A stretch of 64,000 nucleotides of DNA from Giardia intestinalis. Lineage: Eukaryota. The notes beneath the pieces are model-generated. The model made no database searches, was not told the origin of the DNA, and worked only from the letters and a program-made list of their open reading frames with translations. The stretch lies in the NCBI GenBank assembly GCA_000002435.2, contig CM018791.1, one strand, 5' to 3'. The translations under genes and the position numbers were made by a program. Positions 5,441 through 57,198 of the stretch are shown piece by piece; position 1 is the first letter of the stretch, and every line of letters starts with the position of its first letter.

Positions 5441-6424
5441 ATGCCGTTCAAGCAGACCCGCCACTTGCTCACTATCTCTGCCCTCTGCCCCAAGGAGCTT
5501 GCGTACCTTATCGACCGTGCGCTCGACATGAAGAAGAACCCCGCGAAGTACACTGCGCGTGCGGCCAACAAGACCCTGCTCGCCTTCTTCGCCAAGCCGT
5601 CACTCCGCACACGCGTCTCCTTGGAGACAGCCATGACGCGCCTTGGCGGGCACGCGATCTACTACGAGCTCGGCGCAAACTCCAACGTTGGCGGCAAGGA
5701 GACCGTCCAGGACACCGCTGAGGTCTTCTCGCGCATGGTGGACATCTGCACAGCCCGCCTGGCCACCAAGGAGATGATGAGGGAGATGGCCCAGCACGCT
5801 TCTGTGCCCTGCATCAACGCCCTTGACGACTTCGGCCACCCGCTCCAGATGGTCTGCGACTTCATGACCATCAAGGAGAAGTTCACGGCGGCAGGCGAGT
5901 TCTCCAACGGCTTCAAGGGCATAAAGTTTGCATACTGCGGGGACTCCATGAACAACGTCACATACGACCTCATGCGTGGCTGCGCCCTGCTTGGCATGGA
6001 GTGCCACGTTTGCTGCCCTGACCACAAGGACTTCAAGCCCATCAAGGAAGTCATCGATGAGTGCGAGGAGATCATCGCAAAGCACGGCACCGGCGGCTCC
6101 ATTAAAATCTTCCATGACTGCAAGAAGGGGTGCGAGGGCGTCGACGTCGTCTACACAGACTCGTGGATGAGCTACCACATCACCAAGGAGCAGAAGGAGG
6201 CCCGCCTCAAGGTTCTCACGCCGTTCCAGGTCGACGATGCCGTCATGGCCGTCACCTCCAAGCGCAGCATCTTCATGAACTGCCTTCCAGCGACCCGCGG
6301 TGAGGAGCAGACGGCGTCTGTCATTGACGGGCCCAAGTCCGTCTGCTACGACGAGGCCGGGAATCGCCTGCACTCGGCTATGGCGGTCCTCGACTTCTTC
6401 TTGCATGACTGCAAGATGGAGTGA
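5441..6424 (+). CDS. OCT: Ornithine carbamoyltransferase (arginine dihydrolase pathway).
   Basis: SLRTRVS (STRTR carbamoyl-phosphate motif), HPLQ (HPxQ), DSMNNV and NCLP (the HCLP ornithine-binding motif). It aligns along its length to OTC/ArgF. GC3-rich codon usage. Start context GAAAATTAAAATG. Confidence 0.93.
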   Translation: MPFKQTRHLLTISALCPKELAYLIDRALDMKKNPAKYTARAANKTLLAFFAKPSLRTRVSLETAMTRLGGHAIYYELGANSNVGGKETVQDTAEVFSRMVDICTARLATKEMMREMAQHASVPCINALDDFGHPLQMVCDFMTIKEKFTAAGEFSNGFKGIKFAYCGDSMNNVTYDLMRGCALLGMECHVCCPDHKDFKPIKEVIDECEEIIAKHGTGGSIKIFHDCKKGCEGVDVVYTDSWMSYHITKEQKEARLKVLTPFQVDDAVMAVTSKRSIFMNCLPATRGEEQTASVIDGPKSVCYDEAGNRLHSAMAVLDFFLHDCKME

Positions 6425-39043: not shown

Positions 39044-42000
39044 CTAAATACCGTGCTTATAAATAGAAGCTATACGGTTTGCTACGTCGCGCTTGGCCGT
39101 TCTTTGGTTGAGAAAAATCTGCAGCTCATCAACGATGTCCTTGTGGCCTTCTCGCAAAGCAACATCTAGGGCTTCGAGACCGTACGTCTCTCCCTCGTAT
39201 GGCAATATCTTACGTAGGGACTCTACATGGCCTTTCCGGGCAGCTATCTTGAGGGCAGAGCTGAAGAACGAGCCTTTTCTATTACCCTCAACTGGCGCAA
39301 GAACTTCACAGCATTCTGCACGATTGTATGTGGCAGCAATCATCAAAGCTGTTCTTCCGTCCTTGTCACAAGACCCGTGCTCAGCACCTAGGAGGATCTT
39401 ACACACTTCTGGGTGTCCGTTCATGGCTGCATACATAAGTCCCGTGTAGCTGCGTGCATCTGACATTGACGCCTCATGTGGAGCTAGTAGCTGGACAAGC
39501 GCGGGATTTCCCTTACTTGCAGCAAAGATCAGAGCAGTCTTCCCGTCCTTATTTATCATTCTAGATTCATACTGACACAAGATCTTGGCACACGCAAGCT
39601 TCCCTTGTAGTGACGCCTCCATAAGAGCTGTTTTCCCGTCTTTGTTTTGCATCTTGCTTTCGTGGGCAGACAGTATTTTGACTATGTCGTCATACCCTCG
39701 TGTTGCTGCCATGATCAGGGACGTAGACCCATCGTGCCGTGAAAGCGTTGCTTCAACGGGGGCAAGAAGTTCCACGCACTTAGTGTGGTGGTTCATCGTA
39801 GCAAACATAAGGGCTGTGAGCCCATCACTGTTGTGCATTCTTCCTTCGTAATTAAGCAATAGCTCAACTGTCGAAGTGCTTCCGTGACCAGCAGCCTTCA
39901 TAAGCGCTGTGGTACCGTCCTTTGTCGTCAGCTTCGCTTCTTTGTCTACCAAGAGCCGACACAGGTCGCTGTTATTAAAGAATGCAGCCCACAACAGAGC
40001 AGTTTCACCCTTCTTGTTCTGTGCCCCTGCTTGAACAAGATTTGAAATAGCATCAGTATAGGAGCTGCGCTTGCAGGCCCGGATGAGACGCGTATTTCCT
40101 TCCGGATCAACCAAGTTCTCAGGGTGTACAACGGATGCCAACTCTTCGTTCATGTGTACAACGGATGCCGTGTTAGATCTTAGTGGAAACACACCAGGTA
40201 ACTGTACAACAGATGGAGTTCGCTGAGTTGGTGTGAAAGAGCGTCCTGTAACTGCACTATAGACACGCTCTGGTGTCCCGACGGAATTGGTGATGATCCC
40301 GGCCACTTCATAAAGGCTTGTTATACGCCTGTTTTGCAAAGCCTTGGTAACCATCTGGTTTATCTCACTTTCTGCTGAAACATTTGCAGGTGCTGAATCA
40401 GCTTGTGGTGCCGAAGGCTGATCTGTAACACTTGTAGCCTGACCTGTTCGCATGTTTATTGCTGAGTTTTTATTCCCAGCTGAGACAAGTAGCCGGTGGA
40501 CGCTCTTGCTTTGTGCAAGGACCCGTTCTCTCTGATCTTCTAGTAGGTTATTTATTGGCTGCTTCTCATAGTTTTCTACCATCACAGGTGGTGTCGGGGC
40601 ACTCGGCTTATCCTCTATATGTGTCGAGTGCCTTATTGGATGCTTGGATCGCGAAGGAGTAGGATTGCGTGTAGAGTTTGAAAATATCCTCGGCTTTGCT
40701 GTCTTCGGAAGAACAGACGTGGGCATGGGCTTAACTCGAGGAACCTCATTTATTTTACTACTAAGGGGGTCAAATCGATTCCGTGCTTGAGAGGCATGAC
40801 CAGACGAATCTTCATTTGCAGTGTGCTCTTGAGATTTATAGGCCTGTGCTGGAGGATCACTGGATCCCGAAATGCTCATTGTTCCGGTGTTAGTACCAGA
40901 GTTAGAATGGTCGAAGTGACCAGAATTAGCGGAGGGTACTGATATGCCCGTTGCTTCTATGCTGTTAATCGAACAAGTGGCAGCCGGGGAGATAGATGCA
41001 ATACCATGACTCTCCTCTCTATGGAGTTCTCCACTGGCTACACACAAGTCCGAGCTGTGATGCTTGGCTACATCTCGGATGTCTTTACCACTAGATACAG
41101 TAGAAGAGGTTGATGATCTTTTGGGTACAACAGGAGCGCTATTGCTGCCTGCGATATCTGCTCCGCTGGGAGGAATGGTGGAGCTAGGAAGCGCCAGTGT
41201 AGCACTCAATGATACGGTCTGGCAGGGGTGCTCTGAAGTTATTGCAACCTTTCTAGACATGGCATCAAGTGCCTCGACAATCCTGTTATGCTGAAGCAGA
41301 TCAGCTGTGCTAATTCGACACGCGGGCTTCGGCCGTATCATATTCTCTATCACTTCGTGTAGTTCCTTGCTATAGAATTGGGGCATTTCCGGGTATACAC
41401 CACTCCGGATCATACGAATGAGCGGGCCCATCCCAACAGCTACAAAGGGAGGTCGGAGGGCACACACGTGATAGATTGTGCACCCAAGAGACCAGATATC
41501 TACTGCACCACCATGGTACTCCCGTACACCCTCATGAATCTCAGGCGGGGCGTATAGAGGCGTTCCGCACTTGGTTGAGTTCAGCTTGTCGCCTTTAATG
41601 GCGGTAGAAACATTAAAATCTGCTAGCTTTATGTTCCCCTCTTTATCTAAAAGAAGATTCGCCGGCTTAATGTCCCGGTGATAAACCTTTCCGATATTGT
41701 GTGTTACCCCCTCCTCGTCTTGATACTTTTTGTTGAAGGGGCTGTGTAAATAGGTGAGCGCTTGGATGGCCTGCGCAAGAAAGCCCCATATAGCTGCCTC
41801 TGGGACCATTCTTTTCTTTGACTTGCTATCGTCGATCAAGCGCTGAAGATCTGACTCACAAAGCTCCATGAAGACATACAGCGTACAGTTCTCCTTATCA
41901 TCAATGACGTCATAGCACTGAACAATGTGCGGGTGGTGCATGTGCTTAAGTATGCGGGATTCTTTGAACATAGACTCGGGGTCCTTCACTCCCTCATAGC

Positions 42001-42121
42001 TGACTATCTTACACGCCACCTCCGTAGTGGTGTCGGTATTCCGCGCCTTCACTACCCGACCAAACGCCCCTTGCCCTATGCTTCCTATGTATTCATAGGG
42101 GTGGGGGAGACTCACCGACAT
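39044..42121 (-). CDS. NEK-family Ser/Thr kinase with a C-terminal ankyrin-repeat array.
   Basis: N-terminal kinase (GQGAFGRVV, ACKIV, YHRDIKPANLLL, DFN, PPE). C-terminal multiple 33-aa ankyrin repeats (G-TALM-AA--GH---V-LL). Confidence 0.85.
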   Translation of the reverse strand: MSVSLPHPYEYIGSIGQGAFGRVVKARNTDTTTEVACKIVSYEGVKDPESMFKESRILKHMHHPHIVQCYDVIDDKENCTLYVFMELCESDLQRLIDDSKSKKRMVPEAAIWGFLAQAIQALTYLHSPFNKKYQDEEGVTHNIGKVYHRDIKPANLLLDKEGNIKLADFNVSTAIKGDKLNSTKCGTPLYAPPEIHEGVREYHGGAVDIWSLGCTIYHVCALRPPFVAVGMGPLIRMIRSGVYPEMPQFYSKELHEVIENMIRPKPACRISTADLLQHNRIVEALDAMSRKVAITSEHPCQTVSLSATLALPSSTIPPSGADIAGSNSAPVVPKRSSTSSTVSSGKDIRDVAKHHSSDLCVASGELHREESHGIASISPAATCSINSIEATGISVPSANSGHFDHSNSGTNTGTMSISGSSDPPAQAYKSQEHTANEDSSGHASQARNRFDPLSSKINEVPRVKPMPTSVLPKTAKPRIFSNSTRNPTPSRSKHPIRHSTHIEDKPSAPTPPVMVENYEKQPINNLLEDQRERVLAQSKSVHRLLVSAGNKNSAINMRTGQATSVTDQPSAPQADSAPANVSAESEINQMVTKALQNRRITSLYEVAGIITNSVGTPERVYSAVTGRSFTPTQRTPSVVQLPGVFPLRSNTASVVHMNEELASVVHPENLVDPEGNTRLIRACKRSSYTDAISNLVQAGAQNKKGETALLWAAFFNNSDLCRLLVDKEAKLTTKDGTTALMKAAGHGSTSTVELLLNYEGRMHNSDGLTALMFATMNHHTKCVELLAPVEATLSRHDGSTSLIMAATRGYDDIVKILSAHESKMQNKDGKTALMEASLQGKLACAKILCQYESRMINKDGKTALIFAASKGNPALVQLLAPHEASMSDARSYTGLMYAAMNGHPEVCKILLGAEHGSCDKDGRTALMIAATYNRAECCEVLAPVEGNRKGSFFSSALKIAARKGHVESLRKILPYEGETYGLEALDVALREGHKDIVDELQIFLNQRTAKRDVANRIASIYKHGI

Positions 42122-46907: not shown

Positions 46908-49900
46908 CTATGTGTACTTACCTATGAGCTCGTCAATGTCTGTGTCTACGCATAATTCGTGACTGTTGCTCAGGATGTCCACGGTGTCTACAACATTAAT
47001 ACCTTCTTCCTCTACTCCAAGCGTGTTAGGAAGGCTTGGTTGCAGCACAGAACTAGCAACCTCTAATTCTTGTAGATTAGTATCCACATCTATTACATTA
47101 ATAGATGCAGATATCTGTGACGAATTGTCATTTGCATATGTCTCAATAAGAGAGTTAACATCCGGTGGAAGATCTAAGTCCTTATAAATATCTATTTGTG
47201 GTGCCCCTTTGCCAGCAGGTTTCACGCCCACAGCACAGTTCCCAGCTTGCAATCTAGTTGCCTGATTGGCCTGCGTAATGGGCCTGTAAGGTGGCAAAGA
47301 TGATGTTGTGACACTCGCTGAACCGGCTAGATCAACTACAGAGTCAGAAATGGTCAGCCCTGAGTCTATTTCGCCTCCTGTTCTGCTCTGCAACGCCGAG
47401 AGGGTCACCGGTGCATCATTTGTAGGGTACTGTTGGTGTAAGATGTGTGGCGGAAGAGACGCTTGTTGAGGTAATCCTTGCTGGACGGTCGCGGTAGTGG
47501 ACAGGCGCATAGCTGAAGGTAAAGGCGGAAATGCTCCACTGGCAGGGACAGGTGTCAGAGTAGAAGAAGGAGTGGACTGGAACTGTACACGTGCTTGCTT
47601 GTGCATAGTTTGAGCCTCAAGAACTGCCAATCGCTCCATTAAACGTTCGTTTTCGAACTGTAGCTTGGAAATTTCGTTAACGTGTAAAGAAACAGCGGTT
47701 TCTACCCCAAGCTTCTCTCTCTGTAGCTCTTGGATGCGTCTATCATAGTCGAGCATCATGGTCTGGAGGTCTAGCTGATGTTTCGAAGACTGTTGCTCAA
47801 GGGAAAGGTGCGCGTCGTGGTTCTGCTGTGTGATCTCTCGTAATTCCATCCGCAGGTTGGTGATCTCTTGCGTTAGCTGTGCTTTCTCCTCCGTCAACCT
47901 CTTCTTTGACTCAGTGGACCTCAAGAGCTCGGAGGATAGCTTGCGCAGCTCCTCCTCATAGGTTTCCTTAATCTGCTCAAGGGCATCCTCCTGGTCTTTG
48001 AGCGAGCGTCCAGAGGCAGTCATGCTTTCCATTAAGTCCTTCGAAAGATTTTGTCTCTGCGCAAGCACTTCCTTCTGGTTGGCTACTGTCATACTTAACT
48101 CCTCCTTCTCTTCCGTGAGGATTTTGATGCGGTTGCTAGCAATTGCGAGATCACTTTCTAACCGAGTAGCACGGGTTTGCTCTGTGATATAATCCGAGTT
48201 TAAATTGGCAACCTGCTTATTTAAAGCTTCATTCTCCATCCTCATGTCATCAAGTTGTGATCGTAACTGTTTCAATTCCACTTCAATCTTCTCTTTGCTG
48301 ATTGCGATAAACTTCATCTCATCAGCTGTGGCTCTGCAGTCTTCTTCACTATCCCTCAGACGCTCCTTGAGAAGGTCAATCTCTCGCTGTGCCTCTGTGC
48401 AGGAGGCCAGCTTTACTTTGCAAGCGGTGAGTTCTGTTCTTACTGTCTCGAAATCTCTGCTCACCTCTTCGCTTGCGCTCTTGAATGCTGCGTACTCGCT
48501 GCTGAGAGAGTCCTTATCATTGGTTAACCGTGCAATGTCTAACTTCTGTGTTTCTCCCCACAACTGAAGCCTCTCTATTTCCGCCTGGAGGGCTATTTGC
48601 TTTGTCACCAGGTCTGAATTCTCCTGCTGGAGCTTTACGCCCTTGGCCCGCAGGGCGTCCTTTTCTGCAGTCAAGTGCGAGACCTCGGCCTCTGCCGTCT
48701 TGAGAGAAGACTCCTGCTCCATTACTGTCATCTCCATCTTGGATATGTCTCGTGTAGCTTTCGTAAACGATGCTGTAACAGAATTTAGCTTATCTATAAG
48801 GTCCTTGACTTTAGCTGTCAGTTCCACTTTCTCTTGTGTGACTATTCCAAGGTTCTCTTTCAGGAGGTCGAGTGCGGCGTTCTTCTCGGCTACCATCTGT
48901 TTCATGGAGCTCTCAGAGCCATCGATTCGTAGTAACTGGGCTTCCAGCTCTACAATTCTAGCTGTCTTTTCTGCCAATTGCTGAGCAAGAAGGCTCAGTT
49001 CGCTTTCCTTTGCCAGTAGTAGGGCCTCCTTGTCTTGAACGGAGGACAGCAACTCCGTACACTTCTCATTAAGGCCACCAATTTGTTGCTTTTGGTCAGC
49101 GACAACAGAAGTGAGATTTGCATTTGCATGTGATAAGCGCAATATTTCATGCTCTGCCTCAGACATCTTGGCATGGGCCTCTGCAACGCCATTAATCGCG
49201 GCCTGATAATTCTCCTGCAAGGTCTCTAACTGTTTTCGAAGAATACCTGCCTCTTCTGCTGCGGTCGAGAGCTCCTGATGCTTCTCTTGAAGTGACACCC
49301 TCTCTCGATCTCCATCTGCGCATTGTTCAAGCAGAATTGAATACTCTCCGGATAACTTCGTGTACTGTGCAGTCATATCTGCGCTATGCGCCTTGGCTTG
49401 CTTGAGCTCTAGAATAGCCTGCTCGTTAAGTGTCTTGAGGTTCTGAATCACCATATCGAACTTCTTTATCATGACGTCCAGCATCCGAAGGATTGCTATG
49501 CGGTCCAGAATAATGGACTGCTCGCCTTCCTTTTTCTCCCAAGATGACTCTGTGGCGTCGCCTTCTTTGGTACTGAAAGAGACGGACTTCTGCGACTTAG
49601 CTAGGACTATCTGGCTGGTTGGCTGCTTCATTGATCCACCCAGAGCAGCACCATCACTGACTGAGCGGAATGGATTGAACGAGCTTGCTTTGATATAATT
49701 TGATGTACTTTTACCCACACCTTCTGCCTTGAGAGGCCCTACCAATCCCTCGCTATTAAGAGAGTACGTTAATACAAAGCTAGTAGTCGCGAGTGCACTT
49801 CTTGTCACGGCTTTTCCACCAGATACAATGGAAATAGAATCTAGTTGATATTCTAATTTGTATGCATTATAAAGGAGAACGATCTTGTCAAATAGAGAGT

Positions 49901-52900
49901 GCAAATCTGTTTCTCGCTCATCAACCAGACGGCCCTTCTCTCTAATTTCTGAAGCCCAGCGCTCTTCAGCTTCCTTGAGCAAACATCGCGTGTTCTCGTA
50001 CTCTATGCTTAGCGAATTAAACTCTTTGAGAGTCACTGTGTACTGATCTTCCTTTTCTTTGAGTTTCTCTTCTAGTGCTATAACTGTGTTAGACTCGGTA
50101 ATGTTGGCATCCTGCAGCTTAATCGTTAATAGCTTGTTATTGTCCTCAAGCGCCTTTACCTTGTGGTTCAGCTCTGAGGCCAGGGAGTCTGCAATGTAGT
50201 ACTCTGAACTTAGTCTAGATATCTCTGCTTTAGCCCTTTCTAACTCCATTGCCTTCTCAGCCGCCTCTTCACTGACAACAGACACCCTCTGCTCTAGCTG
50301 CACAATGAAGCCACACTTTTCTTCATAGTCTGTCTGCAGTGCTCCAAACGCGGATGAAAGGTTGTTGTGCTCATCTATAAGATTATTCAGATCTGCTTGC
50401 AGAGTACTTGCAAGAATTGTGCACTGGACAGCTTGAGCCCTGGCTACTGTCTTCTTTACGGGGAGAGACCCTGCTAGCTGTGGCGATCTAACAGTGACAG
50501 GATCATCTACATAATTTAGTGATCGACTTTTGCGAGAATTATCTTTTGGTGGCATGGCATTCTGAAATTCATCCACTGAATTACGAACGCTTTTGACGGT
50601 CATGGTTTGTATCCCTGGACTGCCTATTGTTGGTGTTGTAGGATAGTCAGATGTATTAGCCTTCCGTTGACTGCCGATCTCACTAGTCCTCTGAGATGGC
50701 TGAACTAACATGAGTGATGCTGTCAGCGTATCGTTGCGGCTGCGCTCAAACTCAACTTGGCGCTGCAGATCTTCCACTTTGGACTCCAGAGTCTCTTGCT
50801 TCAATTTCCAGTCCTGCTCTGTTTTTCTGATCTGCTCCTCCATTACTCTTCTCTCCTGCTCGGCTGCTACCTGGTACTGATGCTTCATTACCAAGTACTC
50901 CTCAGACTGGCTCTGTATCTCTTGACGCATCTTTGCATCCTGTGTTCTCAACGACTCTTCTGCCAAAGTAAGCCTGTCCACTAGTTGTCTTATCTCAGCA
51001 TCCTTCTCACCAATCACCACCTCTACCTCCTTCCTTGCCTTCTCAAGCAGACCCTTGTTCGCTGTAGCCTCTGTGTAATCCGTCTCTAGAGCTTTGTATT
51101 GAGCCACCAATTGCTCGTGGCTGGCTGTAAGCGACTCATACTTTTTGTGAGCGTTGCTCAATGCGACAGTGATTGTCTTATTTCGTTCCTGGAGCCTTGT
51201 GATTGCATTTGTTTGGTCTTCGCGGCTCTCAGAAAAGGCGGAAAGTTGCTGTTCAAGGTCGAGGTACGCTTGCTGCTGAACGCCTGCATCAATCTCCATG
51301 CGAGTAAGTTTCTCCTGAAGTGATTGAATAGTCGACTTGTATGATGTAATGGTTGTGTTGGCGTTTGCAAGCTCCATGTCCTTGTTCTCTAGCCTGATGA
51401 TTGTCAGCTCCAATTCCCCGATACGGGACACCTTTTCTGCACCATCTCGTTTAGCTTTTGTTAAGTCTTCCTGGAGTGTTGTGATAGCAGACTGTAGCTT
51501 TGACACTGTCCGTTTGGACTCTTCCAGCTCTGACTGGCACGCACTTATAGTGGCCATCTTCTTATCTAGCTCCCCCTCGAGCTCTATATGAGCCTTTAGC
51601 GCTGACGCCTTTTCATCTGTCAATCTCTTTAGGGACGTAGCCAGTTCAGAAGACTTAGCCTTGATAGCCTCGTAGCTAGCCAGCAAGTCGGCATTTTTCG
51701 CTGTGAGCAAGCTTATCTCTGCGCGGTGCTCATGCTCGAGTTTGTTATACTTTTGTTTGATGCTTGAAAGCTCTACTTCCCGCTCCATAAGCTGCTTCTT
51801 TGTCGCCTGCGATGTTATGACGTCATCGGACGCCTTAAAACCCTCAAACTCCCTATATAATTGGTCCCTATCCTCTTCCAGCTTTTTGTTCAATTGAGTA
51901 AGCTCTTGTACCTTCTGTCGCTGCTCACTTATTATAACATCTCGTTGCGAAAGTTGCTCCTGAGCTTGGGTGAATGATTGAATAGACTGAGCTAGCTTTT
52001 GTTCTAATTCCTGCAGAGCTTCTCTTCTATTAGCTTCACTCTTGCGTACCTGATGAATCTCCTCGCTGAGCTTTTGGTTTGTTTCCGACAGCGAAAGACC
52101 ATAGTTATATGCATCTGTGTATTGAGCTTTCAGTGTCTCGTACGTGACCTCTAAGCATCGGGCTTTTTCCTCCTCCTTTGCAAGGGCATTAAGTAGCTCC
52201 TTACGCTCTGCTGCCTGTCTTTCTGCATCTATGCTATGTTGTTTCAGCTGGGATTCCTGGAGCGAGAGCTTAGTCAGCAGGTCATTATGCTCTACTGTCA
52301 GCTTCCCGTGCTGCTTCTGGATTTGTAGGCTCTCCTCGCGCAGCGTGTTAAAGGAGTCATGCTGAAGTTGAAGTTCATGCTTCAATTCCTGTATCTGAGA
52401 GGCTAAGCCAGAACATTTCCGCTCATACCCTTCAGTTAGCTGTGCCTTTCCACGCTCGTATACACTGGCATTGGACTCATGGTGAGCTAGCTGTGCCTGA
52501 GCGCTTTCATAGCTCTTGCTTAATGATGCATGCTGTTCACGGAGGTGATCAAGCTCCTGTTTAAGGGCTTCACAAGTGGAGTTAAGTGATGCAATTTGAA
52601 TGTTCAGTGAACCTAACTCTGAGGAAGCCTGCACCAAATGTGCGTCTTTTTCCTTTAGCCGTTTAGCGTACGTTTCAATAGTATCTGTCGCCTCTGCCAG
52701 TTCTGACTGTAAGCGAGCCTGACCAGCCTTGGCGCGGGACAGCTCCCCATTCAGGCTGGCAATCGACTCTTCGTTGGCTCTGTCAGCTGCAGACACGTCT
52801 CCCAGCGCTCTTTCTGCATTGAACCTTCGCTCGTTAGCTTTGCGAAGCTCTTCATGAAGTTTATCCGTCTGAAGAACGGCGTCAGAGAGCTGCTGCGAGA

Positions 52901-54074
52901 CGCTGCGAAGTTCACGCTCAGAAGCCTCTTTTGCCGCCTGTGCAACTCCCAGCTCAGACTGAAGCTGGTGTGTGCGAATTCGCAGCTCCTGTGTAGCCAG
53001 GAAGACCTCGTCTGTGTCGATGTAGGCCTGGACTCCCTTAGAACACTCTGCATAGGATGTCTCAGGGTTTGTGTACGCGCTCTTCATCAGTGCACGAATA
53101 CCCTCCTGATAAGCAGTCGGGTGGGAGTAGAGTCCAGCTACTTCTTTGGTGCCATGAATCGTCAGCGCAAGAGCCTCGGCAGCGCCCTCTCCTACCTCAA
53201 GGATAATGTTGTGCCTGTCAAGATTATCAATGGACAGGTGCGAGCATGCAGATATGTTGCCGTTTGGATTGCTCGGGTGGGGGAAGCTATCTTGGGTAAG
53301 ACTACCGCTGAGAGCGAGGCTGGAATTGCGCCTACTGCTTTGTGCTTGCTGTGGCGTTGCCATAGGCTCTGCACTCTTCCCTGAACTGTCGGGTTTTCTG
53401 CCAAGCGCCTCTAACTGCCCTCGCAACTTGGAGATCTCCTTTTCTTTCGCATTCAGCTCATCCTTTCGTGTTGCGAGGCGTGCTTTACATTCAACCATCA
53501 GTTCGTTATGTTTGTTTTTATATTTGCTTAGAGTGCTCTTCATCTGGCGGTTTTCCTCCACCATCAGGTTTAGCTTACAGTTCATCTCTTCCAGCTGACC
53601 TTCATAAACAGTAAGATCTGCGTTCAATTTAGCATTAGTCTTTAACAGCTCTGCTCTACCGTCCTCCTGAAGAAGTTGTGGCACCAACTTAAGCAGTGCT
53701 CCCAACTTAGTGGAGCTGAACTCTTCTTTATTGTCATTGCTCTGGTCTTCTAGATGCGCCTGCTTCCAATCCTGTCTGTCACCTTTGGCGGGATAAGATA
53801 AAAACTCAGGAATGTACGGGGCATAATCAAATTCCTTCGTGTTCAGCCGCCGAAATGACTCTACTTCTAGCACTAGCTGTGTTTTTGTAAAGCCATTTCC
53901 CTCCAACCAGTCAAAGACAAACGCAAACTCTGCGTTACTTGACTGCTTGAAAAAGTTTGCCTGCTGGGCTGTTCGTTCTGCTTTTTCGTTAATGGAGAGG
54001 AACATTTTGAACATCCGCATCCACTCCGTGTTCTCTAGGCGTTGCATATAGCCTTGAACGCCATCTTGTGTCAT
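46908..54074 (-). CDS. Giant coiled-coil protein (~2388 aa from the first ATG). It has a short globular N-terminus, about 1900 aa of heptad coiled-coil, and a Pro/Gln/Ser-rich C-terminus.
   Basis: Uninterrupted 7.4-kb frame. The ORF track start (54296) is a TTG; the first in-frame ATG is 54074 (MTQDGVQGYMQRLEN...). Heptad periodicity with abundant E/K/L/Q runs through most of it. Confidence 0.75.
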   Translation of the reverse strand: MTQDGVQGYMQRLENTEWMRMFKMFLSINEKAERTAQQANFFKQSSNAEFAFVFDWLEGNGFTKTQLVLEVESFRRLNTKEFDYAPYIPEFLSYPAKGDRQDWKQAHLEDQSNDNKEEFSSTKLGALLKLVPQLLQEDGRAELLKTNAKLNADLTVYEGQLEEMNCKLNLMVEENRQMKSTLSKYKNKHNELMVECKARLATRKDELNAKEKEISKLRGQLEALGRKPDSSGKSAEPMATPQQAQSSRRNSSLALSGSLTQDSFPHPSNPNGNISACSHLSIDNLDRHNIILEVGEGAAEALALTIHGTKEVAGLYSHPTAYQEGIRALMKSAYTNPETSYAECSKGVQAYIDTDEVFLATQELRIRTHQLQSELGVAQAAKEASERELRSVSQQLSDAVLQTDKLHEELRKANERRFNAERALGDVSAADRANEESIASLNGELSRAKAGQARLQSELAEATDTIETYAKRLKEKDAHLVQASSELGSLNIQIASLNSTCEALKQELDHLREQHASLSKSYESAQAQLAHHESNASVYERGKAQLTEGYERKCSGLASQIQELKHELQLQHDSFNTLREESLQIQKQHGKLTVEHNDLLTKLSLQESQLKQHSIDAERQAAERKELLNALAKEEEKARCLEVTYETLKAQYTDAYNYGLSLSETNQKLSEEIHQVRKSEANRREALQELEQKLAQSIQSFTQAQEQLSQRDVIISEQRQKVQELTQLNKKLEEDRDQLYREFEGFKASDDVITSQATKKQLMEREVELSSIKQKYNKLEHEHRAEISLLTAKNADLLASYEAIKAKSSELATSLKRLTDEKASALKAHIELEGELDKKMATISACQSELEESKRTVSKLQSAITTLQEDLTKAKRDGAEKVSRIGELELTIIRLENKDMELANANTTITSYKSTIQSLQEKLTRMEIDAGVQQQAYLDLEQQLSAFSESREDQTNAITRLQERNKTITVALSNAHKKYESLTASHEQLVAQYKALETDYTEATANKGLLEKARKEVEVVIGEKDAEIRQLVDRLTLAEESLRTQDAKMRQEIQSQSEEYLVMKHQYQVAAEQERRVMEEQIRKTEQDWKLKQETLESKVEDLQRQVEFERSRNDTLTASLMLVQPSQRTSEIGSQRKANTSDYPTTPTIGSPGIQTMTVKSVRNSVDEFQNAMPPKDNSRKSRSLNYVDDPVTVRSPQLAGSLPVKKTVARAQAVQCTILASTLQADLNNLIDEHNNLSSAFGALQTDYEEKCGFIVQLEQRVSVVSEEAAEKAMELERAKAEISRLSSEYYIADSLASELNHKVKALEDNNKLLTIKLQDANITESNTVIALEEKLKEKEDQYTVTLKEFNSLSIEYENTRCLLKEAEERWASEIREKGRLVDERETDLHSLFDKIVLLYNAYKLEYQLDSISIVSGGKAVTRSALATTSFVLTYSLNSEGLVGPLKAEGVGKSTSNYIKASSFNPFRSVSDGAALGGSMKQPTSQIVLAKSQKSVSFSTKEGDATESSWEKKEGEQSIILDRIAILRMLDVMIKKFDMVIQNLKTLNEQAILELKQAKAHSADMTAQYTKLSGEYSILLEQCADGDRERVSLQEKHQELSTAAEEAGILRKQLETLQENYQAAINGVAEAHAKMSEAEHEILRLSHANANLTSVVADQKQQIGGLNEKCTELLSSVQDKEALLLAKESELSLLAQQLAEKTARIVELEAQLLRIDGSESSMKQMVAEKNAALDLLKENLGIVTQEKVELTAKVKDLIDKLNSVTASFTKATRDISKMEMTVMEQESSLKTAEAEVSHLTAEKDALRAKGVKLQQENSDLVTKQIALQAEIERLQLWGETQKLDIARLTNDKDSLSSEYAAFKSASEEVSRDFETVRTELTACKVKLASCTEAQREIDLLKERLRDSEEDCRATADEMKFIAISKEKIEVELKQLRSQLDDMRMENEALNKQVANLNSDYITEQTRATRLESDLAIASNRIKILTEEKEELSMTVANQKEVLAQRQNLSKDLMESMTASGRSLKDQEDALEQIKETYEEELRKLSSELLRSTESKKRLTEEKAQLTQEITNLRMELREITQQNHDAHLSLEQQSSKHQLDLQTMMLDYDRRIQELQREKLGVETAVSLHVNEISKLQFENERLMERLAVLEAQTMHKQARVQFQSTPSSTLTPVPASGAFPPLPSAMRLSTTATVQQGLPQQASLPPHILHQQYPTNDAPVTLSALQSRTGGEIDSGLTISDSVVDLAGSASVTTSSLPPYRPITQANQATRLQAGNCAVGVKPAGKGAPQIDIYKDLDLPPDVNSLIETYANDNSSQISASINVIDVDTNLQELEVASSVLQPSLPNTLGVEEEGINVVDTVDILSNSHELCVDTDIDELIGKYT

Positions 54075-54153
54075 CAAAAGGGCGATTTTTGAATTTTTAC
54101 CATTCACTCCTACTGAACGATAGTCGATAACGACCGGCGGTCGCCTTCGCCTG

Positions 54154-54579
54154 CTAAGGAGCGCAGGCGCCAACTTTTTCACTGAGAGAATAAAGCTGCC
54201 GGTATATGGAGTTGAGATAGTCGGGATCGATACACCCCATAATTCGAACTGACGAGTCCGTGATGGTAAAGCTGGGACTGTGAGTGGTGCCTGCAATACG
54301 GTGGTTCAGGCAAATCATGGAGCTCTTCTCTGTTGGTCTATCTCTCCCGTTGAGCGTGAAGAGCCCTAACTCAGACAATATTACGTTGTAAAGTTTAAAT
54401 ACGTTGCACGGGTGAAGAGGCCCGTTTGCGATGAGATTATTAATCCGAGGCTGTGAAAACTCTAGCTTTGCGCCCCGAAAGTCCCTCACCACCTTTAGTA
54501 TGTCACGCAGACACTCCTTGAATGCATTGCACCAGGCATATACGGTGTCCAGCCTGTCCCCCTCGCAATCTACCACCAT
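54154..54579 (-). CDS. Hypothetical ORF immediately upstream of the giant coiled-coil gene; either an independent small gene or a frameshifted 5' part of it.
   Basis: The frame is open from 54774 (a GTG in the ORF track; first ATG at 54579) to the stop at 54154. It overlaps the upstream-open part of the giant gene's frame (54154-54296). Confidence 0.3.
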   Translation of the reverse strand: MVVDCEGDRLDTVYAWCNAFKECLRDILKVVRDFRGAKLEFSQPRINNLIANGPLHPCNVFKLYNVILSELGLFTLNGRDRPTEKSSMICLNHRIAGTTHSPSFTITDSSVRIMGCIDPDYLNSIYRQLYSLSEKVGACAP

Positions 54580-55077
54580 CTTCTTGTAGACTCGTAGTTT
54601 GATGTTGGAACTAGGGGTTATCAAAAGATAATTCTTTGCAAGCGCACTGTTCGGCGTGCTTAGTGAACCGTCCGATAAGGGGCTGTTGTCTAGGGGGTCC
54701 ACAGGATACGAAGCGTTGCGAAAATTCTTGGCGATGGATACGAAAGCGCTGGGTGTGAACTCTGTTGGCTGCACCTCGCCCGTTGGCTGGGTACTGGTGA
54801 TATCGAAAGTTAGGCGAAGGTTTCTGTGTGTTAGTCGTCATGCGAAACGTTCATACGTGATATTGACGAACCTGTTTGCCGTGCTCATCCTACTGTTTTT
54901 TATCAGCTAGTTTCAGCCCGATGGAATTAGAGTGTCTGGACTGACGTCTCTTTAACCACAATGGAGCATTTCTTCTGGTATAAACAGCTAGCTGTAGTAA
55001 CGCAGGACTCAGAGAGGTGCTGCATCCACTTGCTAAGATAATAACATGGGTTCACAGATCAAGGATGTACGGTGAAC

Positions 55078-57198
55078 CTAACACCGCTCCTCTGGATACT
55101 GAGAAAGAAGATTTACAACGTCGTAATGCTTTGCCGCCCTAGCTATGGAGAGGGCTGTACAGCTGCATGGGAAGAGGGAATCTGTAGATGTAGCTTTCAT
55201 CCCCTTTTCATAGTCTATGAGCATCTTCACCGCCTCTATTTTACCAGCTCGCGCGGCCTGCATAAGGGCTGTCTCACCAGTTCCAGTTTGCATCTTTGCC
55301 TCGCACTTAATGAGCTCGCTGATGATCTCCGTATTGCCTTGTTGTGCAGCGAACATCAGTGCTGTGTATCCTTTACCGCAGGAATAGCTTTCCGTCCCGA
55401 CTTCATAGGTGTAACAGTCGGTCGTCCGCATTCCTCCCTGGAGAGATACAAGGGCCTTCACTGTTTTGATGTCTCCAGACTTCACAGCCTGCATGAGAGC
55501 GGTGACACCCTTTTTGCTGGTGGGCTGAATAACCTCAACGATATTTCCAAATCCTGCCTTTCCAGCAATGATGAGTGCAGTGTCTCCGTTGGCATCTTTT
55601 CTACTCTTGATCCTGAGGTGCTTCTTGACGGTGGCTACGTCGCCCTTTGCAGCTGCACACATAAGGAAAGTCCACTTAAGAACATCCTTTTCGTGTTTGA
55701 TAAGACGCTTGACGATTGATAGATGACCATTTTCCAGTGCCATGTTGAGAGCTGACTGCCCTTTCTTGTCCGTTACACCCACTTCAAACCTACATAAAAT
55801 GGACACGGACTCTGCGTGTCCACCAAGTGCGGCATGCATGAGAGCAGTCATGCCTGTCTCGTCTTTGAGTCCAGACTCTTTGTTAGCAAGCATCCGGACG
55901 ATCTGCAAGTGCCCTCGCTGCGCAGCATGCATAAGGGCTGTCATTCCGTGTTCGTCACGCCTTCCTATGCTATTGCCCAGGCTCAAAAAGACCTTGATGT
56001 CGTTCACCTCGTTGTTACACGCAGCGGCTATCATTGTTGCATACTTAGGGTGGTTCTCATGCACTGAAGATTTCGCGAGTCGAGAAGGTGTTTCTGAAGA
56101 CACCCCCGTGTGCAACAGGTCAATGTTTGGACTGCTTGGAGACTCAGGCTTCGGTTTGGGTGTTGTATTCCGTGAGTTGTACGACGAGCAGGCACTCTTG
56201 AGGGACTGTATTTGTGCTTCTTGCTCCTCAATCTTGGACTGAGAGTTACTCAAAGTTACCCTGAGGGTTGCGCGCTCTGCCTCGAGCATTGCACACTTTC
56301 TTTCAAGTGTACTAATCCTTATTACAGAGTCATCGGTAGGCAGTGTCTTCCTAGCAACGCTCGTAGCATTACTTTTTAAATCTAACATATTCGCTAAGTC
56401 TATAGCAGAGAGGCGGTTGGTTGGATTCAGTACGAGAAGTCGTCGGAGTATATCTTTCAGAAAGCCATCAGCAATCTCACTGAGGTCCGGCCTCCAATCG
56501 CTAACGAAAACCTCCGTCGGCCTACAACCCCTTATGAAGTGTGGTCTACTCAAGCTGACCAGCTCATAGATGATGATTCCGAGGCTCCACATGTCAGAGG
56601 CCGTACTAGATTCTCCCCTCAAAAGCACTTCTGGAGCAGAGTAAGTTGAGCTACCAAAACCAGCAGGTGCACCCTCCAGAGCGCTCCTGCAGAGCCCACA
56701 GTCCGCCACAACAAAGAAGTTTGCGTTTTTGTTAGTTAATATGTTGTCTGTCTTGAGATTTTGATGAGTAAATACCGGTAGAGGTTCCCAGTTTTTACCC
56801 TGCTTATTTGGGTCATGAAGATAGGCAAGGGCAGAGGTGACGTGGTCGATGATAGTAAGAATAGTTGCCTCAGGTATGGGCCTTTTTTCTCGTTTGTGTT
56901 TCACAATCAAGGAAGCAAGGCTTTCGTGGTAGTGCCACATGGAAAGATAAACAAAATCATTAGCTTGTAGCGCCCAAAAATATTCGAGAACGTGGGGGTG
57001 ACTAACATGTTGAAATACGCAGAGTCTTTTAATAAGAACGTCTTTGGCATGCTCCTTCAATGTGTCCAGACGAATTTCCTTAATCGCCTGCTTCGGATCC
57101 TTTTTATATGTGTACACAGCGCCCAGAGAGCCCTCGCCAATGATCTCACCCAGGTTCTCTGACATCTTAGCGACACTATGGTCAACATTATTTGCCAT
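55078..57198 (-). CDS. NEK-like kinase-domain protein with C-terminal ankyrin repeats; predicted pseudokinase.
   Basis: Kinase fold (GEGSLGAVY, AIKEI, DCG, APE). The catalytic loop is HQNLKTDN where HRDLKPxN is expected, so the catalytic Asp is replaced by Asn. Then a coiled-coil and about 9 ankyrin repeats (GMTALMHAA--GH---V). Confidence 0.85.
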   Translation of the reverse strand: MANNVDHSVAKMSENLGEIIGEGSLGAVYTYKKDPKQAIKEIRLDTLKEHAKDVLIKRLCVFQHVSHPHVLEYFWALQANDFVYLSMWHYHESLASLIVKHKREKRPIPEATILTIIDHVTSALAYLHDPNKQGKNWEPLPVFTHQNLKTDNILTNKNANFFVVADCGLCRSALEGAPAGFGSSTYSAPEVLLRGESSTASDMWSLGIIIYELVSLSRPHFIRGCRPTEVFVSDWRPDLSEIADGFLKDILRRLLVLNPTNRLSAIDLANMLDLKSNATSVARKTLPTDDSVIRISTLERKCAMLEAERATLRVTLSNSQSKIEEQEAQIQSLKSACSSYNSRNTTPKPKPESPSSPNIDLLHTGVSSETPSRLAKSSVHENHPKYATMIAAACNNEVNDIKVFLSLGNSIGRRDEHGMTALMHAAQRGHLQIVRMLANKESGLKDETGMTALMHAALGGHAESVSILCRFEVGVTDKKGQSALNMALENGHLSIVKRLIKHEKDVLKWTFLMCAAAKGDVATVKKHLRIKSRKDANGDTALIIAGKAGFGNIVEVIQPTSKKGVTALMQAVKSGDIKTVKALVSLQGGMRTTDCYTYEVGTESYSCGKGYTALMFAAQQGNTEIISELIKCEAKMQTGTGETALMQAARAGKIEAVKMLIDYEKGMKATSTDSLFPCSCTALSIARAAKHYDVVNLLSQYPEERC

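Follow-up and report, generated by a model that had tools for sequence, protein, structure and literature searches.

The DNA analysed here (the window) is a 64,000-nucleotide (nt) stretch of the Giardia intestinalis WB genome (GCA_000002435.2, contig CM018791.1), corresponding to approximately positions 1,024,001-1,088,000 of chromosome 3 (NC_051858.1), as placed from two junction coordinates in PMC10711314. The locus in question is the junction of two genes on the minus strand: GL50803_0015525 (also known as orfB), a small gene of two exons, and GL50803_0017189, which follows it and encodes a giant coiled-coil protein. An earlier note on this DNA had described two overlapping open frames at this point and had proposed that a single indel might fuse them into one protein. 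Our analysis supports two independent tandem genes, GL50803_0015525 then GL50803_0017189, with a probability of approximately 0.96. Both genes are annotated in the NCBI reference as they are read here, and both, together with the orfB intron, have already appeared in two papers (PMC4085374, PMC10711314).

Six loci were compared: the window; P15 of assemblage E (L001, and also L002 and L003); a further three lineages of G. intestinalis, drawn from assemblies of public reads (L004, L005, and L006, with protein identities of 89%, 82%, and 77%, respectively); and a G. muris-like contig (L007), the protein of which clusters with GMRT_11904. A further contig, L008, comes from a Giardia relative (Logan SRR31929897). 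Gene identity, exon-intron structure, the conservation of stop codons, ATG codons and frames, and the lack of conservation of the upstream extension were computed here; splicing and transcripts are taken from the literature, and we infer what the poly(A)-like and AT-rich motifs do. The features of the locus are listed in Table 1.

Table 1. Features at the GL50803_0015525-GL50803_0017189 junction (window positions).
Feature	Position	Strand	Remarks
A-rich block GATAAAAAACAG, putative initiator of GL50803_0015525	54893..54904	-	Just 5' of the ATG
Exon 1 of GL50803_0015525	54857..54888	-	ATG 54888 + 29 nt = 32 nt (10 codons + 2 nt)
33-nt spliceosomal cis-intron, GT-AG, GTATGAACGTTTCGCATGACGACTAACACACAG	54824..54856	-	Phase 2; in-frame TGA inside
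Exon 2 of GL50803_0015525	54154..54823	-	Includes TAG 54156-54154; its 3' part corresponds to the 54774-54154 frame
77-codon open extension of the giant frame	54075..54305	-	Includes TTG 54296; non-coding; without ATG; unconserved translation
Intergenic spacer, 79 nt	54075..54153	-	Between the two genes; poorly conserved
AGTGAAT, match to AGTRAAY, putative poly(A) signal of GL50803_0015525	54102..54108	-	46 nt past TAG 54156-54154
AT-rich block TAAAAATTCAAAAAT, putative initiator/core promoter of GL50803_0017189	54085..54099	-	11-25 nt before ATG 54074
Coding sequence of GL50803_0017189, 2388-amino-acid hypothetical coiled-coil protein	46908..54074	-	ATG 54074 to stop

The small gene, GL50803_0015525

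Splicing of exon 1 to exon 2 gives a 702-nt coding sequence (CDS) for a protein of 233 amino acids (aa), an exact match to KAE8303007.1 / XP_037901842.1. The ATG and the 32-nt exon 1 are conserved in an alignment of five G. intestinalis lineages, and a GGTA-AAAAA motif is kept in all lineages 5-16 nt upstream of this ATG. In exon 2, substitutions relative to four orthologues fall on codon positions 1, 2, and 3 at rates of 11%, 8%, and 45%. The gene has its own capped transcript, detected by reverse transcription PCR (RT-PCR) and by 5' RACE (rapid amplification of cDNA ends), the latter mapping the mRNA 5' end, in PMC4085374, and by RNA sequencing (RNA-seq) in PMC10711314.

A search with the protein of the small frame matched solely Giardia proteins of 206-233 aa, including GLP15_2037 of P15 (94% identity). 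Across the G. intestinalis lineages the protein is 75-94% identical, and more distant homologues are present in G. muris (38% identity, E = 8e-35) and on L008 (31% identity, E = 1e-16). A profile search of 1.84 billion representatives gave three hits, all of them from the Giardia lineage; by these searches, the GL50803_0015525 family is restricted to that lineage. No domain was found in the protein in a Pfam scan. An AlphaFold2 model of exon 2, built with a five-sequence alignment, had a predicted local distance difference test score (pLDDT) of 38 and a predicted template modelling score (pTM) of 0.34, too poor for a fold search.

The 33-nt orfB intron

Exactly the 33 nt of the intron are missing from P15: P15 reads MSTGNRCVNIT|NLRLTFDITS, and the window reads MSTANRFVNIT[YERFA*RLTHR]NLRLTFDITS, where the bracket is the intron. 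Its 5' end, GTATG at 54856-54852 (-), agrees with the 5' splice-site motif STATG (as defined in PMC4085374) and is kept in L004-L006. At its 3' end, the fused branch-point/3' splice-site motif ACTAACACACAG at 54835-54824 (-) fits the Giardia motif HCTRACMCVCAG, which has this single match in the whole 64-kb window; a search of the window for further introns with the Giardia 3' motif gave no copies besides this one. The counterpart of the 3' motif in L005 is CTAACACGCAG. In L004-L006 the intron is 34 nt long, which is not a multiple of three, so splicing is needed there to join the conserved exon 1 to exon 2 in frame.

This is the very same locus as the orfB of Kamikawa, Inagaki and Hashimoto (2014; BMC Res Notes 7:413, PMC4085374), listed as GL50803_15525 (ORF AACB02000001-6-305427-304747), with an identical spliced protein and nothing different in the window. 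Their RT-PCR primers match the window exactly (forward 54877-54857, other 54703-54722). In that paper, RT-PCR clones were obtained both with and without the intron (3/8 spliced), and the intron is absent in P15 (contig ACVC01000101); its polymorphism between assemblages has been in print since 2014. In PMC10711314 it is intron 22, of 33 nt and phase 2, located behind CDS position 32, with the junction present in 59 of 70 RNA-seq sets and approximately 42% of reads spliced. To the 2014 description we add the 34-nt intron in the three further G. intestinalis lineages (L004-L006, from public read assemblies) and a candidate homologous intron in the Giardia relative L008, discussed below.

Unspliced GL50803_0015525 RNA would meet a stop codon, the intron TGA, after 16 codons. 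Because published splicing is only about 40% (approximately 42% of reads), the majority of transcripts in WB would yield a peptide of 16 residues, unless there is downstream re-initiation.

The orfB intron is one of about eight confirmed cis-spliced introns in Giardia and is of standing interest to Giardia biologists. The others are those of ferredoxin (35 nt), dynein light chain (32 nt), PSMD4 (29 nt), GL50803_86945 (36 nt), GL50803_37070/Sec61beta (41 nt), Rpl7a (109 nt), and GL50803_35332 (220 nt). It resembles them in its 5' GTATG, its ACTAACACACAG motif, its small size, and its position near the 5' end of the gene. Unlike them, it is the sole one reported to be polymorphic among assemblages, having been lost in assemblage E, and in WB it is set apart by a length that is a multiple of three and by its in-frame stop.

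The giant gene, GL50803_0017189

The 2388-aa product read from ATG 54074 is an exact match to XP_001710004.1 / KAE8303006.1. This ATG, together with the N-terminus MTQDG(V/I)QGYMQRLENTEWMRMFKMF, is kept in all G. intestinalis lineages, and conservation resumes exactly there: from the ATG onward, substitutions at codon positions 1, 2, and 3 are 10%, 6%, and 36%. A Pfam scan of the protein gave only sub-threshold coiled-coil noise, with no SMC domain. The protein is presumably cytoskeletal, a guess from its composition.

The first part of the protein is a conserved, non-coiled N-terminal region of approximately 90 aa (MTQDGVQGYMQRLENTEWMRMFKMFLSINEKAE...FVFDWLEGNGFTKTQLVLEVESF; window 53800-54074 (-)). 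No Pfam family matches this region, which can be recognised in the G. muris-like locus; an uncharacterised domain for targeting or anchoring is one possibility. The P15 model of the gene uses an ATG located 13 codons before the conserved one (L001:10745-10784 versus window 54113-54074 (-)) and is 2402 aa in length. This model is probably too long, because its ATG is absent from WB and the other lineages. The entry for the protein from DH (A2) is labelled 'Chromosome segregation protein SMC, partial', a label that probably reflects coiled-coil similarity only.

The 79-nt spacer

The TAG of the small gene and ATG 54074 are separated by 79 nt, close to the median intergenic size of 81 bp given for G. 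intestinalis in PMC7641422. This spacer is the least conserved part of the locus: it contains an 8-nt indel, its indel lengths are not multiples of three, and its length is 72-90 nt elsewhere in G. intestinalis and 0 nt at the G. muris-like locus.

The sole conserved block in the spacer is RGTRAAY-GRTAAAAATTCAAAAAT. Its first part, AGTGAAT in the window, lies 46 nt past the GL50803_0015525 stop and 34 nt ahead of ATG 54074, and RGTRAAY is kept in five lineages, 32-34 nt before the ATG, as AGTGAAT, AGTGAAC, AGTAAAT, or GGTAAAT. AGTRAAY is the Giardia poly(A) signal consensus, and we regard the window copy as the putative 3'-end signal of the GL50803_0015525 mRNA. The AT-rich part lies 11-25 nt upstream of ATG 54074 and reads TAAAAATTCAAAAAT in four lineages and TAAAAATCAAAAAAT in L004. 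Giardia genes have AT-rich initiators, which precede their start codons by a few nt up to a few tens of nt, and very short 5' untranslated regions (UTRs); this block most likely acts as the initiator of GL50803_0017189.

Open frames at the junction

In the list of open reading frames (ORFs) for the window, the giant gene is called as 46908..54296 (-), 2462 aa counted from TTG, and the small gene as 54154..54774 (-), 206 aa counted from GTG. The coordinates in the earlier note are all correct, and the two ORFs overlap by 143 nt (54154-54296). The giant frame is open past TTG 54296, as far as 54305. The frame of the small gene is also open beyond its call, up to 54837. The TTG and GTG 'starts' are a product of the bacterial code (table 11) applied to a eukaryote and are therefore meaningless; for the giant protein, the call from TTG 54296 adds 74 spurious codons. 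The small frame itself is real, with its true start at ATG 54888 and its 33-nt intron just outside the interval that the note had reported.

In the giant frame the earliest ATG is that at 54074, and the 77 open codons upstream of it contain none. Intervals of this kind are common in the window, where there are 157 non-genic stop-to-stop intervals of 77-249 codons and approximately 4.8% of codon positions in non-genic frames are preceded by at least 77 open codons. For the window's approximately 35 genes, chance would give one or two extensions of this kind. The extension is a chance open frame and a feature of this lineage. More generally, the junction is an example of what happens when an ORF caller made for prokaryotes is run on a compact and nearly intron-free eukaryote: false 'overlapping starts' appear, and a two-exon gene is hidden.

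A gene on the plus strand beneath the junction was also considered and rejected. The plus-strand ORFs in the list (54431-54589 and 54656-54910) are short chance frames and no gene, and no antisense ORF or transcript at the orfB intron is reported in PMC6545626.

Comparison of the junction across lineages

In every lineage aligned, the small gene has its own stop, although its position shifts by a few codons. In the four other lineages of G. intestinalis, stops close the giant frame 24, 23, 7, and 9 codons before its ATG; in the G. muris-like locus the figure is 0, and the open overlap is found in the assemblage A lineage only. Within the 143-nt overlap, differences from the orthologues amount to 12.5%, 6.9%, and 43% at positions 1, 2, and 3 of the small-frame codons. 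Position 3 of the small frame is position 2 of the giant frame in this region, and the giant-frame translation is unconserved. This pattern indicates that selection in the overlap acts solely on the frame of the small gene.

The sequence of the junction is also well replicated. The exact 206-aa ORF product (P0023), including its C-terminus and stop, occurs on 109 independently assembled Logan contigs. A lone Logan contig of 1597 nt, P0027 (~54841-54080 (-)), differs: it has two frameshifts, and in it the small gene reads into the upstream frame of the giant gene. Most probably, this read-through reflects an error of sequencing. With 109 contigs that repeat the window's sequence, as against the single P0027 with its second frameshift, it is very unlikely that the window itself was wrongly assembled.

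The G. muris-like locus (L007:5300-6000) is more compact. Its homologue of the small gene has no intron, and the TAA of this gene is followed directly by the ATG of the giant-gene homologue in the same frame, leaving a spacer of 0 nt, an extreme case of G. muris genome compaction. A code in which TAA and TAG specify glutamine occurs in hexamitid diplomonads, and Giardia uses the standard code; the former was rejected for this locus, as the long ORFs there are free of in-frame TAA and TAG. On L008, the homologue of the small gene lies between an S-adenosylmethionine synthetase gene and an unrelated gene on the opposite strand, and no giant gene is found downstream. It follows from this arrangement that the two genes are separable units.

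Two genes or one

Taken as two genes, the locus would work as follows. GL50803_0015525 would be transcribed from the A-rich initiator just ahead of ATG 54888, its GT-AG intron (54856-54824) would be removed, and translation would end at TAG 54154. AGTGAAT (54108-54102) would end this mRNA, and the AT-rich block at 54099-54085 would start the GL50803_0017189 mRNA, to be translated from ATG 54074; between them, the two signals would fully occupy the spacer. Some points temper this account. Read-through or bicistronic transcription is formally possible, and the support for two genes is drawn from assembled contigs and published RNA work. Both genes are in one frame in the G. muris-like locus and in L006, with a stop or stops between them, and one contig (P0027, against 109) reads the small gene into the upstream frame of the giant gene.

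The earlier note had put first an N-terminal domain fused to the giant protein by an indel, a sequencing or assembly frameshift, or a pseudogenised junction, and had named last an independent small gene with a 79-bp spacer. The last of these was right, and the gene is GL50803_0015525, with its published transcripts (PMC4085374, PMC10711314). That a single gene, with a domain of approximately 200 aa at the N-terminus of the giant protein, has been split by a sequencing or assembly frameshift or by a recent pseudogenising indel in 54154-54296 is extremely improbable: although the frames overlap by 143 nt, such that one +1 shift would fuse them, and P0027 shows a fusion of this kind, the orthologues (assemblage E, the three further G. 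intestinalis lineages, and the G. muris-like locus) have a stop at the end of the small gene and a conserved giant ATG, and the translation of the extension is not conserved and contains stops in the orthologues. The note had suggested looking for orthologues that encode both parts in one continuous frame; there are none among the six loci, all of which have a stop after the small gene. It had also named a shared two-frame arrangement in orthologues as evidence that would speak against a fusion, and because the orthologues do keep two genes, with their own stops and conserved ATGs, the fusion is refuted. A frameshift in the sequence is not supported either, given the recurrence of the exact 206-aa product on 109 contigs and the second frameshift in the one contig of 1.6 kb that differs, and a pseudogenised junction is refuted by the same two-gene arrangement of the orthologues. 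On L008, moreover, the small-gene homologue is not adjacent to any giant gene.

Programmed +1 frameshifting or stop-codon read-through could in principle yield a minor GL50803_0015525-GL50803_0017189 polyprotein from a read-through transcript. In WB the giant frame, which is +1 relative to the small one, stays open across the junction, and only one TAA stands between the in-frame genes of the G. muris-like locus. We nevertheless give this proposal almost no credence, since the open overlap is confined to the assemblage A lineage (the orthologues have 1-6 stops in the giant frame within 80 codons of the ATG), the overlap shows no codon-position signal of dual coding, and the poly(A)-type signal conserved in the spacer, along with its initiator-like AT-rich block, is what would be expected between separate transcription units. 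No frameshift site turned up at the junction; none was sought. Only slightly less improbable is the idea that the small ORF is not a true protein gene, being a chance ORF or only the giant gene's 5' UTR or promoter region. Its product has no Pfam domain and a model of very low confidence. Against this stand the strong purifying selection in its frame (third positions 45% variable versus 8-11% at first and second positions), the conservation of its product across G. intestinalis and the homologues in G. muris and L008, and a conserved intron, removal of which restores the frame and for which spliced cDNA has been published (PMC4085374). Two independent genes thus remain our reading of the locus, which is ordinary, already explained, and of little importance beyond good housekeeping.

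Age of the orfB intron

The small addition made here is a hint, from public read assemblies, that the orfB intron may predate genus-level splits. The homologue of GL50803_15525 on L008 (L008:5882-6636) contains a candidate intron of 41 nt at 5905-5945 (GTATGC...CCTAACACCCAAG), which follows a 23-nt, ATG-initiated exon 1 with an AT-rich stretch upstream of the ATG. Its phase and aligned codon position are equal to those of the WB intron.

The age that this would imply depends on where L008 branches. For S-adenosylmethionine synthetase, the L008 protein shares 63% identity with its G. intestinalis counterpart and 60% with the G. muris one, as compared to 67% between G. intestinalis and G. muris, with the next matches at approximately 50%. 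For orfB, identity is 38% between WB and G. muris and 31-32% between either of these and L008. On the crude evidence of these two proteins, L008 appears to branch outside G. intestinalis and G. muris. Three of eight cis-introns are retained in G. muris. There is perhaps an even chance that the orfB intron predates the split between G. intestinalis and G. muris and was precisely lost at least twice, in G. muris and in assemblage E. If the L008 intron is real, such an age would contradict the placement of the orfB intron in the 'later-evolved' class (PMC6545626).

Other features of the window

The window has the gene content of a eukaryote, including Rad51, eRF1, two ankyrin-repeat NEK kinases, and an AMPK gamma subunit with CBS domains, and its ORFs are dense, intron-free, and located on both strands. 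Exact look-ups identified a 706-aa kinase as 'Kinase, NEK' (XP_001710006.1) and a 354-aa protein as the AMPK gamma-1 subunit. The two NEK-type kinases have long ankyrin-repeat tails and lie less than 15 kb apart, at 39044-42121 (-) and 55078-57198 (-), a pair typical of the expanded Giardia NEK/ankyrin family.

At 6061-6129 (+), the window contains the rarely used 'GT-GG intron 21' of PMC10711314, a 69-nt segment of the ornithine carbamoyltransferase gene GL50803_10311. The direct repeat GTGCGAGG flanks both of its ends; judged from the sequence, these repeats are a hallmark of template switching by reverse transcriptase, an artefact, and not of splicing.

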